From a virus (taxonomy: Duplodnaviria; Caudoviricetes), in IMG/VR virus record IMGVR_UViG_3300013121_000020, positions 290,092-354,091 of that record: a stretch of DNA of 64,000 nucleotides; one strand, given 5' to 3'. The notes beneath the pieces are model-generated. The model was not told the origin of the DNA and ran no database searches. It worked only from the letters and a program-made list of their open reading frames with translations. Within the stretch, counting starts at the first letter, position 1; every line of letters starts with the position of its first letter. Positions 5,715 through 63,994 of the stretch are shown piece after piece. A program made the translations under genes and the position numbers.

Positions 5715-6431
5715 TTACTTTTTAATTCCAATAAAATAATCGCCGTTTGTGAAAATGATATTAAAGAAACGGCGATATGATTCTAAAACAGGTGTGCGGA
5801 TTGTGATGGGGTGTCCAACATCGTATGATTTCATCGGATGAAATTCATCGTGGGTACGTTCACCCATAACAACAATCCCACCCGGTTTTAGTGCTCTATG
5901 GATGTTATTAAGGACAAGATAGGCGTCCATTACGTGTTCGAGTACATTGATACAAACAATGGTGTCATATTTTTCGTTATCTTCTAATAATTCTGCCATG
6001 AAAGGCAAGAATGTTGTAGGAAGATTTCGTAATTTTCCACTTCTGTATGAACAATGGGGCATTGTTGGGTAATTTTCAAGTAGTGGGTCTAATAATACGA
6101 TTGAATTTGCTGTACGATTTTCAAGAATGGTAACTGATTGGGTGAATGGTCCACATCCGACTTCTAACATGGTTCCAAGATTTGGTGGTAAAGCTTTATA
6201 TCCGTCGAATATGGCGTAATGTTCGTGGTTGCGATCACTTTGTGCGTCATGCCAGCAATTTATCCAACCATGGTGTTCAAATTTTTGGGCGGCTTGCCAA
6301 CGATCAAAATCGACTTTGACGATTCCTAAATCTGGATGTGTATAATATTTTGAATCGTTGATTTTGGCGATGTTTTCTTCTGCTTCTAGTCCTTCGCAAA
6401 TTCGTTCTGGTGAACCTACCCAAGTTGGCAT
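5715..6431 (-). CDS. Class I SAM-dependent methyltransferase
   Basis: LEVGCGP, YDTIVCINVLEHV and LKPGG motifs. Confidence 0.9.
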   Translation of the reverse strand: MPTWVGSPERICEGLEAEENIAKINDSKYYTHPDLGIVKVDFDRWQAAQKFEHHGWINCWHDAQSDRNHEHYAIFDGYKALPPNLGTMLEVGCGPFTQSVTILENRTANSIVLLDPLLENYPTMPHCSYRSGKLRNLPTTFLPFMAELLEDNEKYDTIVCINVLEHVMDAYLVLNNIHRALKPGGIVVMGERTHDEFHPMKSYDVGHPITIRTPVLESYRRFFNIIFTNGDYFIGIKK

Positions 6432-6440
6432 TGGTTTTCT

Positions 6441-7523
6441 CTATGATGTAGAAACAATGGTGTTCTTGAAAATTCGATTGTTGTCAATATAATTTTTGAC
6501 GGTTGCGGTGTTCACTATAGCTGGTTTTACTGATCCATCACTGGCACCACAAGCAGTTATTACAAAATTTAATGTGTCTATGCCAATATCAGCGGCTATT
6601 TTTTGTGCTAAATTTAATAGTTCTGTATTGCTATTAGTATTAAATAGAATATATTTCCAGCGAATTTCGCACGATTTTTTAAGTTCTTTTTTAACTGCAA
6701 CAGCTTGTTTCATAAATGAAATAGTTGCGTCAAAATTGCCTCCTTTTCTATAAGTATCATATGATTCTTTTGTTGAGCCATCAATTGAACAATTAATCCA
6801 ATCCATTAATAAATATTCTGGTTTAAATTGTTGTGTGGCGTTTGTGTCCATACTCATAACCAAACGTGGCAAATTTTCTCTTGCATATTCAAGCATTTTT
6901 GGAAATTCTTTGTTTAAAGTTGGTTCGCCACGACCAACAAATGCGATGCGTTCTAAACGTATAGCGTGTGTTTGAATTGAGTCTATGATTTGTTTGAACC
7001 ATTCTAATGGAAATAGATATGGACCAACTTCAGATCCAATTGGGTCTGGATGCCATCCATGCAAACAACCTGGGCAACGTAGATTGCAGGGAAATGATGG
7101 TTCTAATTGAATCTCATTGATCTTATCAATGCTGCCCATTGGCCAATTACGCAATTTGGCAGTTCTTTTCATTTCTTGTAGTGCGTGAAATGTTTGATGT
7201 GAGACATCATTTGCTATTTCTGAGTCACGATAACGTCGATTTTTAGGTTCTCCTTGAGTTAATAGACAACAACATTTCTTACATTCGTTGATATAATGTT
7301 GATTGTCTTGTATTATAGTTAATCTCATTTGGCGCATTTCTGGCGCATTTACAATATCTAATACAAAATCTGATATTGGAAAATTTTTATTAACAATTGT
7401 ATATCGTTCACCAGCATCACACCAGCATGGAACTCTACCATTTGATTTTACATAAACTCTATTCCATGCCCAACAATGGATACTGTGTTCAACAATTGGT
7501 AACAACATATGATTTTGTTCCAA
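6441..7523 (-). CDS. Radical SAM protein with N-terminal SPASM/Twitch domain
   Basis: N-terminal CWAW..VKSNGRVPCWC...CKKCC, followed by CNLRCPGC and GRGEPTL. Confidence 0.85.
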   Translation of the reverse strand: MEQNHMLLPIVEHSIHCWAWNRVYVKSNGRVPCWCDAGERYTIVNKNFPISDFVLDIVNAPEMRQMRLTIIQDNQHYINECKKCCCLLTQGEPKNRRYRDSEIANDVSHQTFHALQEMKRTAKLRNWPMGSIDKINEIQLEPSFPCNLRCPGCLHGWHPDPIGSEVGPYLFPLEWFKQIIDSIQTHAIRLERIAFVGRGEPTLNKEFPKMLEYARENLPRLVMSMDTNATQQFKPEYLLMDWINCSIDGSTKESYDTYRKGGNFDATISFMKQAVAVKKELKKSCEIRWKYILFNTNSNTELLNLAQKIAADIGIDTLNFVITACGASDGSVKPAIVNTATVKNYIDNNRIFKNTIVSTS

Positions 7524-46394: not shown

Positions 46395-46616
46395 TTATTT
46401 CGATTTCGATTTTTTAGAACGATGTTTCTGCGATTTCAATACTGACGAAGGCTCTTTTAAATATGATTCATGTGGAGGATATCCATATACTCTTTCAATT
46501 TTTGAACAAAAACAACGTGGGCACCAATTAAGTGATCCTATTCCTTCTGTATATGGCGATCCAAAAAGTTCTAGCCATTTGAATCTACATCTTCTACATT
46601 TCGCATTAGCGTCCAT
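46395..46616 (-). CDS. Small Zn-ribbon protein
   Basis: CRRC...CPRC in a 73-aa ORF. Confidence 0.5.
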   Translation of the reverse strand: MDANAKCRRCRFKWLELFGSPYTEGIGSLNWCPRCFCSKIERVYGYPPHESYLKEPSSVLKSQKHRSKKSKSK

Positions 46617-46648
46617 TTTGACAACCGCTCAAGTTGAGTGTGATCGTG

Positions 46649-46766
46649 GTGTTCAGCGGAGCTGTTGACTCTCCTGTGTATCTCATGCCAGCGGGTGGTG
46701 TGCCAGCGCGATGAGTTATTCGGCATGATGTCATATCAGCGGTGATCCTCGTGTATACGTCAGCGG
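46649..46766 (-). CRISPR. Micro-repeat array A (five 10-11 nt repeat remnants)
   Basis: Plus-strand GTGTTCAGCGG 46649, ATGCCAGCGG 46685, GTGCCAGCGC 46700, ATATCAGCGG 46733 and ACGTCAGCGG 46757 match the end of the 36-nt repeat. Gaps between them are 5-25 nt. Confidence 0.65.
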
Positions 46767-46784
46767 CATACTTACTGGTAACAT

Positions 46785-47025
46785 CTCGCTGTGATGGCTG
46801 TACTACGTACCCACAATGGCATTTTACAATCTATTCAAACCGCTAGATTGTAAAATGACTCTCACCAGTTATGGTTTGTTAATCCATGTGGTACTTGCTA
46901 ACAATTGTTGAGTTTCAATCTGTAATTGAAACTGCTTGCTTCGCAGTTACGTAGTGATTTACACTAATAGCCACCAAAGTAATGTATGACTTGTTTTTAG
47001 GCTAGTCATACATTTAATTGCGGTT
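46785..47025 (-). ncRNA. tracrRNA-like RNA copy A
   Basis: Aligns with 47127-47359 and 52169-52408, with covarying stems and an anti-repeat CAGCG at the 3' end. Confidence 0.8.
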
Positions 47026-47059
47026 GTTCTAATTATCAAAGATCGTCATAAATCTCATG

Positions 47060-47105
47060 GTGTTTCAGCGGCGATGTTCATCGGGGATACCGCGTGTGCC
47101 AGCGG
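47060..47105 (-). CRISPR. Micro-repeat array B (two remnants, 24-nt spacer)
   Basis: GTGTTTCAGCGG at 47060 and GTGCCAGCGG at 47096. Confidence 0.65.
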
Positions 47106-47126
47106 CATACTTACGGGTAGTAACAT

Positions 47127-47359
47127 CCGCTGTGGTGGCCGTATTACACACCCACATGGCACTCTGCTATTATAAGAACCGCCAAATAGCAGAACGACTC
47201 TCGCCAGTTATGGTTTGTTAATCCATGTGGTACTTGCTAACAATTATTGAGTTTCAATCTGTGATTGAAACTGCTTGCTTCGCAGTTGTGTAATGTTCAC
47301 ACTAACCACCATGTTGCATATAGCTCGTTTTTAGGCTAGCTATATGTTTTGATTGCGGT
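47127..47359 (-). ncRNA. tracrRNA-like RNA copy B
   Basis: The most diverged copy. It has compensatory changes (ATTACACA/TGTGTAAT vs ACTACGTA/TACGTAGT) and an anti-repeat CAGCGG. Confidence 0.8.
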
Positions 47360-48021
47360 CACAGTTTTTCAATACATGTATCATTAGATTCATTTATAAT
47401 GATACATCGTGAATAATCAGGCACATATGATTTAATATTGGTAGCATCAGCCCATTTTTTGAAAAATGATTTCAATTCATTCCACTGGTCCTGCGATATT
47501 TGTTCATATGCACGTTCGTGCATGTTATCTTGGATATGATCACAAACTTTGTCTTTAATATCCATTGATGATAATAATTCTTCTTTTGTAAACCATAAAT
47601 ATTCAGGACTATCACCACCACTTTCGACAATTGATTGAACGGCATCTTCAATACCGTCAAAATAATATTTATCATTAATATATAACACACCATGATAGTT
47701 TAAAGGTAATTCAGTAAGTTTTTGCGCTTTTTCAAAACGATTCTGTTCTTTTATTCTATCAAGCTTGCAGCGATGTTCACTGAAATGTTTCTTACATAGT
47801 GATTGCCAATCTGCAAACGCTTCTTCACCACAAAGTTCACAGCGATGATTGCAACATCTTTCAGCTGTTTTTCTTGCGTACTCTAGACGTGCATTTGGAG
47901 TCAATTTCTGGTTTTCAAGTGCTACTGGCGCATATTTCGCACTATGAATTGTTTGGCATTGACTACATATCCATGCGTCTAACTTCTCGCCCTGTTCATT
48001 ACATAATCGCCATGGATTCAT
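47359..48021 (-). CDS. Hypothetical Cys-rich phage protein
   Basis: 220-aa ORF with CSQC...CC..CELC...C. Confidence 0.65.
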   Translation of the reverse strand: MNPWRLCNEQGEKLDAWICSQCQTIHSAKYAPVALENQKLTPNARLEYARKTAERCCNHRCELCGEEAFADWQSLCKKHFSEHRCKLDRIKEQNRFEKAQKLTELPLNYHGVLYINDKYYFDGIEDAVQSIVESGGDSPEYLWFTKEELLSSMDIKDKVCDHIQDNMHERAYEQISQDQWNELKSFFKKWADATNIKSYVPDYSRCIIINESNDTCIEKL

Positions 48022-48050
48022 TGATTGTTGCTCACAGTTTTGTTAAATGA

Positions 48051-48362
48051 TCAGACATATAATTTCATTTCACATATGTCAGAGAACACTCGTTTGATTG
48101 CTGCTATACGCTCTTCTTTTGTAGCAAATTGTCGAGCATATAAAAACGCAATCAATTCAATGGTACCGAATCCGCCTCTACATTCTGATATATTTAGTAA
48201 TTCTTCCTGTTGGTGTCCCAAATCCACATATGATGCATATGCTTCACGGTGAAGCCATTCCGGTATCTGGATTGCCTGAGTTTGAACCGGAAACATTAGC
48301 TTATTCATATCATTTCCCTCCACATCGTTAATTAACGCATGAGCAATTGGTGCTAGATGCAC
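48051..48362 (-). CDS. Hypothetical phage protein
   Basis: IP.W....AY..Y...Q.....RGGFG..EL pattern; the true start is probably MNKLMF. Confidence 0.6.
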   Translation of the reverse strand: MHLAPIAHALINDVEGNDMNKLMFPVQTQAIQIPEWLHREAYASYVDLGHQQEELLNISECRGGFGTIELIAFLYARQFATKEERIAAIKRVFSDICEMKLYV

Positions 48363-50310
48363 GTTGCTTCATATATGCCAATAATTCATCGCCAATCATA
48401 GCACGAAACTTTTGTTTATCTTCAGACGACTTTGAAACATATTGCTTCCAGTTGACCATCCATGACTTATCGACGGCGACTTTAATCAGATTTATTGCCG
48501 CATTTAAATCGCTGTTACGTTGTTTCTTACAGTTTACGCACCAGAACAATGGTCCACAATATGCTAATTTAACCTTATTATTCGATTGTGTAAATCTACC
48601 ACCTAAGTGACCACATACACCACAAACTCGTGATGTACCATTGGACATTACTGTTCTTACCATGATGCCATGTCGTGATGCTATAGATTCTAAATAGAAT
48701 TTAATAACACCATGCAACATAGTGGTAATTCGATTATTTGCAAATCTATTTTTCTCAAGGCTTGGTAATAGTGTCTTCAAATCCTCAATTACAATATAAC
48801 AAGCCAAATCTGGGTTTGCGCGTTTAGCGTCAAGTGCAATTTTCATAATTGCACTTGCAGTCTTCCGCGCTCTATCTATAATCACATTTCGTTTGTGTTT
48901 CTGTAGTTTCGAACCGTGATGTTTTGTAACTCGTCCGGTCAAGCTTCTAGATCGTGCAATACGCCGATGTAAACCATCTATCCCACGAATAGTTTTAGTA
49001 TGTGGTAATGATTTAATGGCTATAAATTTTGAGAATTTAATATCATTTTTATGACTTGTTGCGACTGCACAATATGCTGGATATCTAATTCCAAGATCTG
49101 CGGATACATAAATTGCTGGTTTCGTTTTGTCTGGGGTTTTCCATTGTGATGTACATTCAGCGGTGAATGCAAATATTGGCATTTTATTTGGGAATTTATA
49201 TCTAAGCGAGATGTTCGTTAACCGTATGCTTATATCACCATCTATCGTTCCAACTGGCGCGATGGTTTGACGTTTATTTTTTAATGTTACCGTTTGTTCA
49301 CGCACATTGGCATTCACCAATCTTTTATCGGCGGCGAATTTCACTGTCAACCATGGGCTTAATCCGTCAACAGTTGGTACTCTTACTTCTACTGATCCCA
49401 ACGATTCGCCGTTTATATTCAAATTGCGTTGTGTATTTGTGCGATATAACATTAGCCATGTTGGGTGATGGATTGCTGATGGTAATGTAAAGATTGCTGG
49501 TTTGTCTATTCGTCGAAGTTTGCGATATTCCTTATACGTATTATCTAAAGCGTGCAACTCTGGATTAAGTTGAAAGAATTTCTTTCTATACTTGATTTGT
49601 CCAGATATAAGTTTCCGATTTTGATCGCTGTCTATGGTGGCGTTTTTATCTCGCCATGTCACAAGCCGTGAGTTGGTAGCTATCCATTTAAGATATCGAT
49701 GCCATCTTAGACGATTGTTTTTAATGGCACCATGTTTAGTTTCCCATTTTTTAATCTCTGGTAATGCGTTATTCATAAAGTCTTGATTGTTCTTTATGAA
49801 TTTGGTAAATTTTAATCGTTGTTTGCGTCGATTACGATCTGATAATTTCTTGATTGCTACATATGCCTTTAATTTTGCAACAGCTGCTTCGATCGCTATT
49901 TCTCTGATTTTACCAAATGGATGAATATCTGTTTTTGACAGTAATGATGCAATAATTTTAGAATTGGCTTGATAGTCGTCAAATAATTTCTTAGTGCGTT
50001 CTGGGCCAAATTTATTTTCAGAGACTTTAATAGCGCACTTTGGTTTCCAGTCTATACGAGAAAATGCGTTGGTGATATAGTCTGATATATCTACCTTCAC
50101 CATCGCCAATTCCACAAGCGAACGACAAATGTCTTTGATATGCTGTGGTTGATGTAAAAGTTTTCCACGTCCATTATATATATCAAACAAACTGGTGATG
50201 GCAGTTCGGACACATGAATTAAATATTTCATGACCTCTGAACAACAATTTTTGCGTTTGTTGATCGCAAACACAGCGTGAAGTATATATTATGTGTTTTG
50301 AACTAGCCAT
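48328..50310 (-). CDS. cas12: Compact type V CRISPR effector (Cas12b/Cas12g-like), 660 aa
   Basis: RuvC-I VSADLG, RuvC-II IVIEDL, Zn finger TSRVCGVC...CVNC and RuvC-III NSDLNAAINL. The N-terminal L...H..FN..VR and FTLP.A..HP.W motifs resemble Cas12b. It is flanked by an array and tracr-like RNAs. Confidence 0.85.
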   Translation of the reverse strand: MASSKHIIYTSRCVCDQQTQKLLFRGHEIFNSCVRTAITSLFDIYNGRGKLLHQPQHIKDICRSLVELAMVKVDISDYITNAFSRIDWKPKCAIKVSENKFGPERTKKLFDDYQANSKIIASLLSKTDIHPFGKIREIAIEAAVAKLKAYVAIKKLSDRNRRKQRLKFTKFIKNNQDFMNNALPEIKKWETKHGAIKNNRLRWHRYLKWIATNSRLVTWRDKNATIDSDQNRKLISGQIKYRKKFFQLNPELHALDNTYKEYRKLRRIDKPAIFTLPSAIHHPTWLMLYRTNTQRNLNINGESLGSVEVRVPTVDGLSPWLTVKFAADKRLVNANVREQTVTLKNKRQTIAPVGTIDGDISIRLTNISLRYKFPNKMPIFAFTAECTSQWKTPDKTKPAIYVSADLGIRYPAYCAVATSHKNDIKFSKFIAIKSLPHTKTIRGIDGLHRRIARSRSLTGRVTKHHGSKLQKHKRNVIIDRARKTASAIMKIALDAKRANPDLACYIVIEDLKTLLPSLEKNRFANNRITTMLHGVIKFYLESIASRHGIMVRTVMSNGTSRVCGVCGHLGGRFTQSNNKVKLAYCGPLFWCVNCKKQRNSDLNAAINLIKVAVDKSWMVNWKQYVSKSSEDKQKFRAMIGDELLAYMKQRASSTNCSCVN

Positions 50311-63525: not shown

Positions 63526-63850
63526 TGTTTGATGCGCTTTCTGTGTTATGCGGTTGTATGGTTGTCCAGGCCATACTATATAATGGCTCTGTTTGCCATG
63601 TTAGTGTTTGGTGTTACTAAGCCAACTGACCAGAACTGTGGTTTTTTAGGACGTTTTTGGTTAATGCGGGATTGTTCCGCATTCCGGCTCCGGTCGCCTG
63701 TTCTGGTTGATCTTTCATGGTTGGAAGATCTAAAAGAAACGTTCAGGACGCATAAATGCAAAGGCCAATGATGGTCTTGTGTCTGTGGAGTTGGTGACCG
63801 TACGCATGTTATTGATAACTGGAATCTACTCGGTGTAACGACGGACATTC

Positions 63851-63994
63851 TTGAACCAGTTGAACCAGTTGAACCAGTTGAACCAGTTGAACCAGTTGAA
63901 CCAGTTGAACCAGTTGAACCAGTTGAACCAGTTGAACCAGTTGAACCAGTTGAACCAGTTGAACCAGTTGAACCAGTTGAACCAGTTGAACCAG
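63851..63994. repeat. Perfect 9-bp tandem repeat (TTGAACCAG)x16
   Basis: Counted directly. It reads EPV repeats on the plus strand or GST repeats on the minus strand. Confidence 0.95.

Follow-up and report, generated by a model that had tools for sequence, protein, structure and literature searches.

The locus lies in a phage record of 354,091 bp, estimated to be 98% complete, and the window analyzed here comprises its final 64 kb (64,000 nucleotides). Read along the minus strand, it opens with scaffold copy C and its upstream block (52427-52175), followed by a long hairpin and an array of 36-nt repeats (52053-51519) with a repeat-shortened tail that runs to about 51329. The opposite strand then carries folD, after which the minus strand continues with a cas12-like gene (50310-48328), a pair of small ORFs that belong to no recognized family, the scaffold B cassette, and the scaffold A cassette. 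A small zinc-ribbon ORF and then an SbcC-like gene complete the order. The guide-RNA region is non-coding within a densely coding genome. Individual features are listed below in window coordinates.

52175..52395, minus strand: scaffold copy C (split type), with an upstream block at 52396-52427
52169-52174, minus strand: copy C anti-repeat, CAGCGG
52099..52168, minus strand: long perfect hairpin of about 30 bp behind copy C (-38.4 kcal/mol, z = -8)
51519..52053, minus strand: CRISPR array; its 36-nt repeats end in CCGCTGACAC and its spacers measure 34-38 nt
51329..51730, minus strand: array tail in which most repeats are reduced to handles of about 10 nt
50472-51308, plus strand: folD (methylene-THF dehydrogenase/cyclohydrolase, 2e-54), complete
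48328..50310, minus strand: cas12-like effector gene, 660 aa (Pfam PF07282, Cas12f1-like TNB domain, 7.9e-10)
47133..47346, minus strand: scaffold (tracr-like) copy B (81% identity with copy A), which shows the consensus fold and compensatory pairs
47127..47132, minus strand: copy B anti-repeat CAGCGG, paired with 47105-47100 in the minimum free energy (MFE) structure
47106..47126, minus strand: copy B linker of 21 nt, a small hairpin that extends the stem
47096..47105, minus strand: copy B handle CCGCUGGCAC (= CCGCTGGCAC), a 10-nt repeat remnant, CCGCTG + GCAC
47072..47095, minus strand: copy B fused guide, 24 nt, 58% G+C
47062..47071, minus strand: second handle behind copy B, tail AAAC
46792..47012, minus strand: scaffold (tracr-like) copy A, with a conserved block upstream at 47013-47044
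46785..46791, minus strand: copy A anti-repeat CAGCGAG, which carries a mismatch and forms 5 bp with the handle
46767..46784, minus strand: copy A linker of 18 nt, homologous to the copy B linker
46757..46766, minus strand: copy A handle CCGCUGACGU (= CCGCTGACGT), CCGCTG + ACGT
46743-46756, minus strand: copy A first guide, 14 nt
46628..46756, minus strand: copy A guide cassette, with guides of 14, 24, 5, 25, and 23 nt separated by handles of 9-10 nt

The folD gene splits the CRISPR locus between the array and cas12. Three small minus-strand ORFs of 103, 220, and 73 aa lie beside the guide cassettes (47359-48362 and 46395-46616). No Pfam or PHROG family was found for any of them, and the products of 220 and 73 aa are cysteine-rich and zinc-ribbon-like. 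Position between cas12 and the guide RNAs suggests accessory roles for these ORFs. A search of the phage genome found neither cas1 nor cas2, and the guides of this phage are therefore largely hard-wired. At the extreme end of the record, a perfect 9-nt tandem repeat (TTGAACCAG) is present in at least 16 copies (63815-63994).

The effector has a single RuvC-like domain with a D-E-D triad, which is split by a zinc-finger (TNB) insert. Residues D405, E509, and D601 and the zinc-finger cysteines C563, C566, C591, and C594 are invariant in an alignment of 15 homologues. Its AlphaFold model (pLDDT 88.9) shows the bilobed Cas12 fold, and the best Foldseek matches to that model are Cas12b (4e-18), Cas12g (3e-14), and Cas12h (1e-13). 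A family profile matched Cas12g best (2.6e-37) and Cas12b next; the 660-aa protein alone, searched with phmmer, did not reach either of them outside the TNB domain. The gene adjoins a CRISPR array, as expected of a type V system. Judged from sequence and predicted structure, the effector is an unclassified Cas12, with Cas12g and Cas12b as its nearest relatives.

Among 1.8 billion representative proteins, searched exhaustively and without a profile, only 126 relatives came up. In a FastTree phylogeny of 86 homologues, which was midpoint-rooted and contains many long branches, the effector forms a four-member clade with its counterparts at loci L006, L005, and L004 (support 98); this phage clade joins a polytomy at the base of the Cas12b/g-like group, beside 23 shorter homologues (388-685 aa). 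The bacterial members of the family occupy ordinary type V loci with cas4-cas1, cas2, and arrays whose repeats end in ..ACAC, and have separate tracrRNAs with long anti-repeats. Arrays are present at the related loci L087 and L089, and the latter additionally carries cas4-cas1 and cas2. Word-based protein searches with P0001 and P0002 each found only the other. A scan of IMG/VR proteins recovered only distant TnpB/Cas12 relatives (22-35% identity), and nhmmer found the scaffold RNA beside none of them. Matches to the conserved RNA motif, one in IMG/VR and four in JGI metagenomes, were judged to be due to chance. The same phage encodes a second RuvC/TNB-like ORF of 509 aa outside the window (G000:C1:176734-178263; locus L100 1120-2649, minus strand), for which the Pfam TNB match (0.0018) is below the cut-off. 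Comparison with the 660-aa effector detected no similarity, and no scaffold copy lies nearby.

As proposed in the initial annotation, copies A, B, and C are paralogous structured RNAs on the minus strand. They are 80-90% identical to one another (BLAST 81-85%) and share a common fold. The consensus comprises 82 predicted pairs, and 14 of these have changed on both sides while continuing to pair, which marks the scaffolds as real RNAs under selection. Many consensus pairs are G-U, which fixes the RNA strand as the minus strand. No Rfam family was found for the scaffolds.

A conserved block, CTTTGAnA ... AACCGC, precedes the scaffolds. It occurs at 47013-47044 and 52396-52427 in the window, at 7196-7230 in L006, and at about 6770-6800 in L005; the version upstream of A recurs at copy C and, in part, at L006 and L005. 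A motif check on the phage ruled it out as a general phage promoter motif. Its AACCGC element is complementary to an invariant GCGGUU loop within the scaffold and also occurs in the 36-nt repeat, and a putative AACCGC/GCGGUU pseudoknot is conceivable. No convincing sigma-70 promoter or terminator was found beside A or B; the scan gave fewer sites than shuffled sequences and carried little information.

In copies A and B, the scaffold runs through an anti-repeat and a short linker into a handle and a guide. This fused arrangement had been described beforehand, and every substring of it was recovered base for base on the minus strand at the positions listed above. The homology proposed for the two linkers is likewise borne out: their flanks are identical and an indel lies mid-linker. 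Behind the 14-nt guide of copy A, four more handle-guide units extend to about 46628. The second handle behind copy B is probably degenerate, because its AAAC tail does not fit the pairing with the scaffold GUGU described below.

The anti-repeat and handle of A and B can close a hairpin in cis, as the initial annotation supposed. This terminal hairpin is present in the whole-RNA MFE structures of both copies, and in that of the L006 RNA. Folded alone, the copy A hairpin has an energy of -7.2 kcal/mol and is no better than shuffled sequence, with 71 of 200 shuffles as stable. The copy B hairpin, with a bulged stem of about 13 bp once the linker is included, reaches -13.5 kcal/mol and performs modestly better (19/200). 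Given folding energies this near to those of shuffled sequences, the case for the predicted cis helix stands on sequence comparison, not on energy.

That comparison draws on the handles themselves. With up to one mismatch allowed, the handle motif has 21 minus-strand and 4 plus-strand sites in the 354-kb genome, and counts of related motifs place nearly all minus-strand matches within the locus, in three clusters. Such a concentration greatly exceeds chance expectation. We examined 17 substitutions in 19 handle-like sites against a pairing partner consisting of CAGCGG and the conserved, unpaired GUGU of the scaffold. Watson-Crick or G-U pairing is kept by 13 of the 17, where 23% would be expected (p = 5e-6), and two of the four exceptions belong to a single site, probably a spacer sequence that resembles the handle by chance. 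The 13 pairing-neutral changes are without exception transitions at tolerant positions, with none where a transition breaks the pair; even if only transitions were permitted, the probability of this pattern is about 0.01. We conclude that the handles appear to evolve under a pairing constraint.

Copy C is organized differently. It is followed by its long hairpin, a 45-nt leader, and an array of six 36-nt repeats situated about 1.2 kb from the cas12 gene. Fused and split guide forms thus coexist beside one effector gene, A and B representing the former and copy C with its array the latter, in agreement with the initial annotation. The accompanying statement that copy C lacks the linker holds in part: a long hairpin does stand before the full array, but the initial ~20 nt past the anti-repeat weakly resemble the A/B linker. 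From this weak similarity it would tentatively follow that one indel of about 130 nt is enough to interconvert the split and fused forms. The long hairpin was rejected as a classical terminator, as a 3' U-tract is absent on both strands, and it may be a processing or boundary element. Derivation of the 36-nt repeat from the fused terminal hairpin, by copying, was considered separately and dropped; the repeat folds weakly (-3.7 kcal/mol) and is equalled by 21 of 200 shuffles.

Handle-only guide units trail both the 36-nt-repeat array (51329-51730) and scaffold A (46628-46766) on the minus strand. The preservation of scaffold pairing by handle substitutions suggests that a crRNA of this system may need no more than about 10 nt of repeat.

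The closest relative of the effector is encoded at L006, in a 370-kb phage assembly (GCA_902731625.1, contig CACVJO010000001.1), and is 41-48% identical by different measures, one giving 45-48% and another 41-45%. Its cas12 is split into two ORFs by one frameshift at about 5848-5857, so that residues 2-245 and residues 243-659 are read in different frames; the frameshift could be real, programmed, or an assembly error. A homologous RNA lies about 65 nt 3' of this gene (nhmmer 8.6e-63), and 18 of its predicted pairs have changed on both sides. At its 3' end, a conserved CCAUCA is followed by a stem strand CGGCA, a 5-nt loop, the opposing strand UGCCG, ACAC, and then unique guide sequence. The terminal hairpin has a stem of 5-6 bp and a loop of 3-5 nt (z = -4.6 when folded alone), and two pairs of the stem are compensatory relative to CAGCGG/CCGCUG. 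No array was found within 6 kb on either side of L006 cas12 (13 kb of the 370-kb phage covered). Since its loop is too short for a separate crRNA gene, the L006 RNA appears to be a genuine one-piece guide RNA. Comparative support for the fusion comes from this single relative with its frameshifted cas12.

The more distant L005 effector (28% protein identity) has a different layout. Its RNA, downstream of cas12, continues from a conserved CAUCAC into a long hairpin, GCGAG...CUCGC. This hairpin (7104-7157; -39.4 kcal/mol, z = -5.5) is the counterpart of that behind copy C: it covaries, and the two have common GCGAG...CTCGC ends and unlike interiors. By these predicted structures, the few known members of the clade include both fused (L006) and split (L005) layouts, and our phage has both.

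On balance, we lean towards A and B being natural single-guide RNA genes for the adjoining 660-aa Cas12. The fused design is probably functional, because a distant phage relative has the same design. Several results count against this reading: no protospacer turned up in the collections searched, the copy A hairpin folds no better than shuffled sequence and its anti-repeat is mismatched, the first guide of copy A has only 14 nt, A and B have no convincing promoter or terminator, and the comparison draws on one relative. Minus-strand transcription of each gene would yield a product of about 270-300 nt. Covariation shows the structure of its scaffold, in which a 5' hairpin and an outer stem are combined with internal hairpins. 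At the 3' end, comparison of the copies and relatives supports a structure in which the anti-repeat CAGCGG folds over the linker hairpin onto the handle CCGCUG, and the substitution pattern supports pairing of the four-base RYRY tail of the handle with the conserved GUGU bulge of the scaffold. The next 14-24 nt would be presented as the guide. Both contacts would be made in trans by the handle-guide units farther downstream and by crRNAs from the 36-nt array. Given the intact RuvC triad, cleavage of complementary foreign nucleic acid is the most likely activity of the complex. The target is taken to be DNA by default, and RNA is possible because, among solved relatives, Cas12g is nearest in sequence.

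A different processing route leads to much the same pairing. A and B could be co-transcripts of a tracrRNA and a mini-array, with the cis helix a mere intermediate; a host or phage RNase would cut the linker and the junctions between units, and the mature form would be a two-piece tracrRNA:crRNA. The linker-extended stem of copy B is a possible site for a double-strand RNase, the further handle-guide units behind A must work in trans regardless, and in the bacterial relatives the tracrRNA is a separate molecule that forms a long repeat:anti-repeat duplex. Against this, the short stem and loop of L006 are too small for processing, which points to a true single guide within the clade. Loop cutting would also leave the paired strands unchanged, so that this route would differ little in function from a single-guide gene. 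We regard it as unlikely for A and B.

The cassettes might instead be dead: decaying duplicates of copy C and its array, produced when a deletion joined the tracr to the first repeat. Several irregularities in A and B would fit decay, including short or uneven guides (14 and 5 nt), last handles whose tails (AAAC, AACA) violate the pairing rule, the mismatch in the copy A anti-repeat, the weak resemblance of the linker to the start of the copy C hairpin, and guides whose targets were not found in the collections searched. However, the three copies have diverged by 10-20% while keeping nearly all helices, with 14 compensatory pairs; the handle substitutions are strongly biased to pairing; and the fused plan recurs in L006. 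Decay is accordingly an improbable account of these genes.

The guides average about 50% G+C, compared with 38.7% for the phage. No match beyond chance was found between the guides, including their first 14-20 nt, and the phage's own 354-kb genome. The elevated G+C and the lack of self-matches fit a foreign origin of the putative spacers. Among GenBank phages, matches did not rise above chance: the best had E values of about 0.1-0.8, and one of these, of 25/27 nt, spans a handle. Searches of E. coli genomes and plasmids gave nothing beyond chance, as did searches of IMG/VR for exact 20-mers of guides B1 and A2, array spacers C2 and C10, and the L006 guide, and of GTDB genomes for guide B1. Three GTDB matches to the L006 guide were set aside as chance-level, as they stop at exactly 20 nt and two represent the same gene in sister cyanobacteria.

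These searches also bear on whether the fused RNAs serve some purpose other than interference. They might be regulators that direct binding without cutting to host or phage genes, or decoys that soak up the related effector of a rival phage. The 14-nt guide and 5-nt unit of copy A would suit such a role, and there is a precedent in the repression of the cas9 operon by a naturally occurring single guide (bioRxiv 10.1101/2020.05.21.102756). The guides' first 14-20 nt, however, have no match in the phage genome beyond chance, the guide of copy B has a normal length of 24 nt, and the RuvC site is intact. We therefore give regulation or decoy function little credence and continue to favor single-guide RNA genes serving the adjoining nuclease.

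The coexistence of guide formats invites a broader, evolutionary reading, though a rather doubtful one. The initial annotation allowed for either an intermediate or a reversion between TnpB-type and CRISPR-type guides, and the polytomy at the base of the Cas12b/g-like group fits an ancestral as well as a secondary fusion. The one-piece (omega-RNA-like) guide may be ancestral to the Cas12b/g lineage and have been kept by the phage clade, and the locus may capture an RNA split in progress. Equally speculatively, the stages of that split would comprise the fused guide, the scaffold with a hairpin and leader inserted ahead of its guides, and repeats of either 36 nt or a 10-nt handle. If true, the locus would display, still in use, the steps by which the 3' end of a single guide RNA gives rise to CRISPR arrays and tracrRNAs, and a 10-nt repeat would be shown to suffice for a working crRNA. 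Were one effector to use fused, split, and micro-repeat formats, the route from transposon guide to CRISPR array would be testable in a single system. The locus also suggests how a phage without cas1 or cas2 keeps a small hard-wired set of guides.

Several known systems share parts of this arrangement. TnpB is a protein of about 400 aa in an IS200/IS605 or IS607 element, accompanied by TnpA or transposon ends. Like its omega-RNA (reRNA), A, B, and the L006 RNA are long structured RNAs beside the gene of a RuvC/zinc-finger nuclease and, in silico, carry the guide 3' of the scaffold in the manner of an OMEGA-type single guide. Our effector differs in its length of 660 aa and in a full Cas12-type REC lobe, as modeled. 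In addition, the omega-RNA overlaps the 3' end of its gene, whereas the RNAs described here lie downstream of theirs, have a repeat-derived handle before the guide, and share their locus with a CRISPR array. No transposase was seen within about 10 kb of cas12 and no IS ends were noticed nearby; the neighbors are folD, two family-less ORFs, and the SbcC-like gene; identity as a TnpB element was rejected on the basis of protein size and the lack of transposon context. Type V-K CRISPR-associated transposons provide another parallel, as they have delocalized crRNAs with truncated repeats outside the main array. These resemble our units in the shortened repeat, but are not fused to a tracrRNA and serve transposon homing with an inactive Cas12k.

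TranC systems (Jin et al., Cell 2025) are comparable in a further respect. As described in two articles (PMC13565253, PMC13639567), one lineage combines a single-piece guide with a split tracrRNA/crRNA, and RNA splitting is proposed to create CRISPR-type guides. In both cases, one-piece and split guides would be tied to one effector lineage. Going by those accounts, TranCs are TnpB-sized or slightly larger and fall among TnpB lineages, whereas our effector joins the Cas12b/g-like proteins at a basal polytomy and its fused and split guide forms are separate paralogous genes at one phage locus. In type II-A Cas9 systems, the tracrRNA gene yields a natural one-piece guide, tracr-L, which imitates the duplex although it has no real repeat or spacer, and which is directed at the promoter of its own cas genes (bioRxiv 10.1101/2020.05.21.102756). 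The RNAs described here have a real handle and a spacer-like guide, and no self-target appeared among the matches in the 354-kb phage genome. Autoregulation of the tracr-L type was set aside on the same result. One-piece guides are, in summary, already known from TnpB omega-RNA, TranC, and Cas9 tracr-L.

A further comparison is with Cas12g (type V-G) and Cas12b (type V-B), which provide the best profile and fold matches, depend on a tracrRNA, and have repeats ending in ..CAC. Our protein is 100-450 aa shorter and belongs to its own four-member clade. In the engineered Cas12b sgRNA, a short loop joins the anti-repeat to the repeat just before the ..CAC tail. A, B, and the L006 RNA are naturally joined in this way, whereas the fusion is man-made in the known Cas12g and Cas12b systems. 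The locus is consequently of interest to both CRISPR biology and tool building: it may supply an sgRNA already designed by nature for a compact nuclease of 660 aa whose active site is intact. Engineered single guides were a laboratory invention for tracrRNA-dependent Cas9 and Cas12 enzymes, and a natural, conserved fusion would represent the same solution reached in nature.
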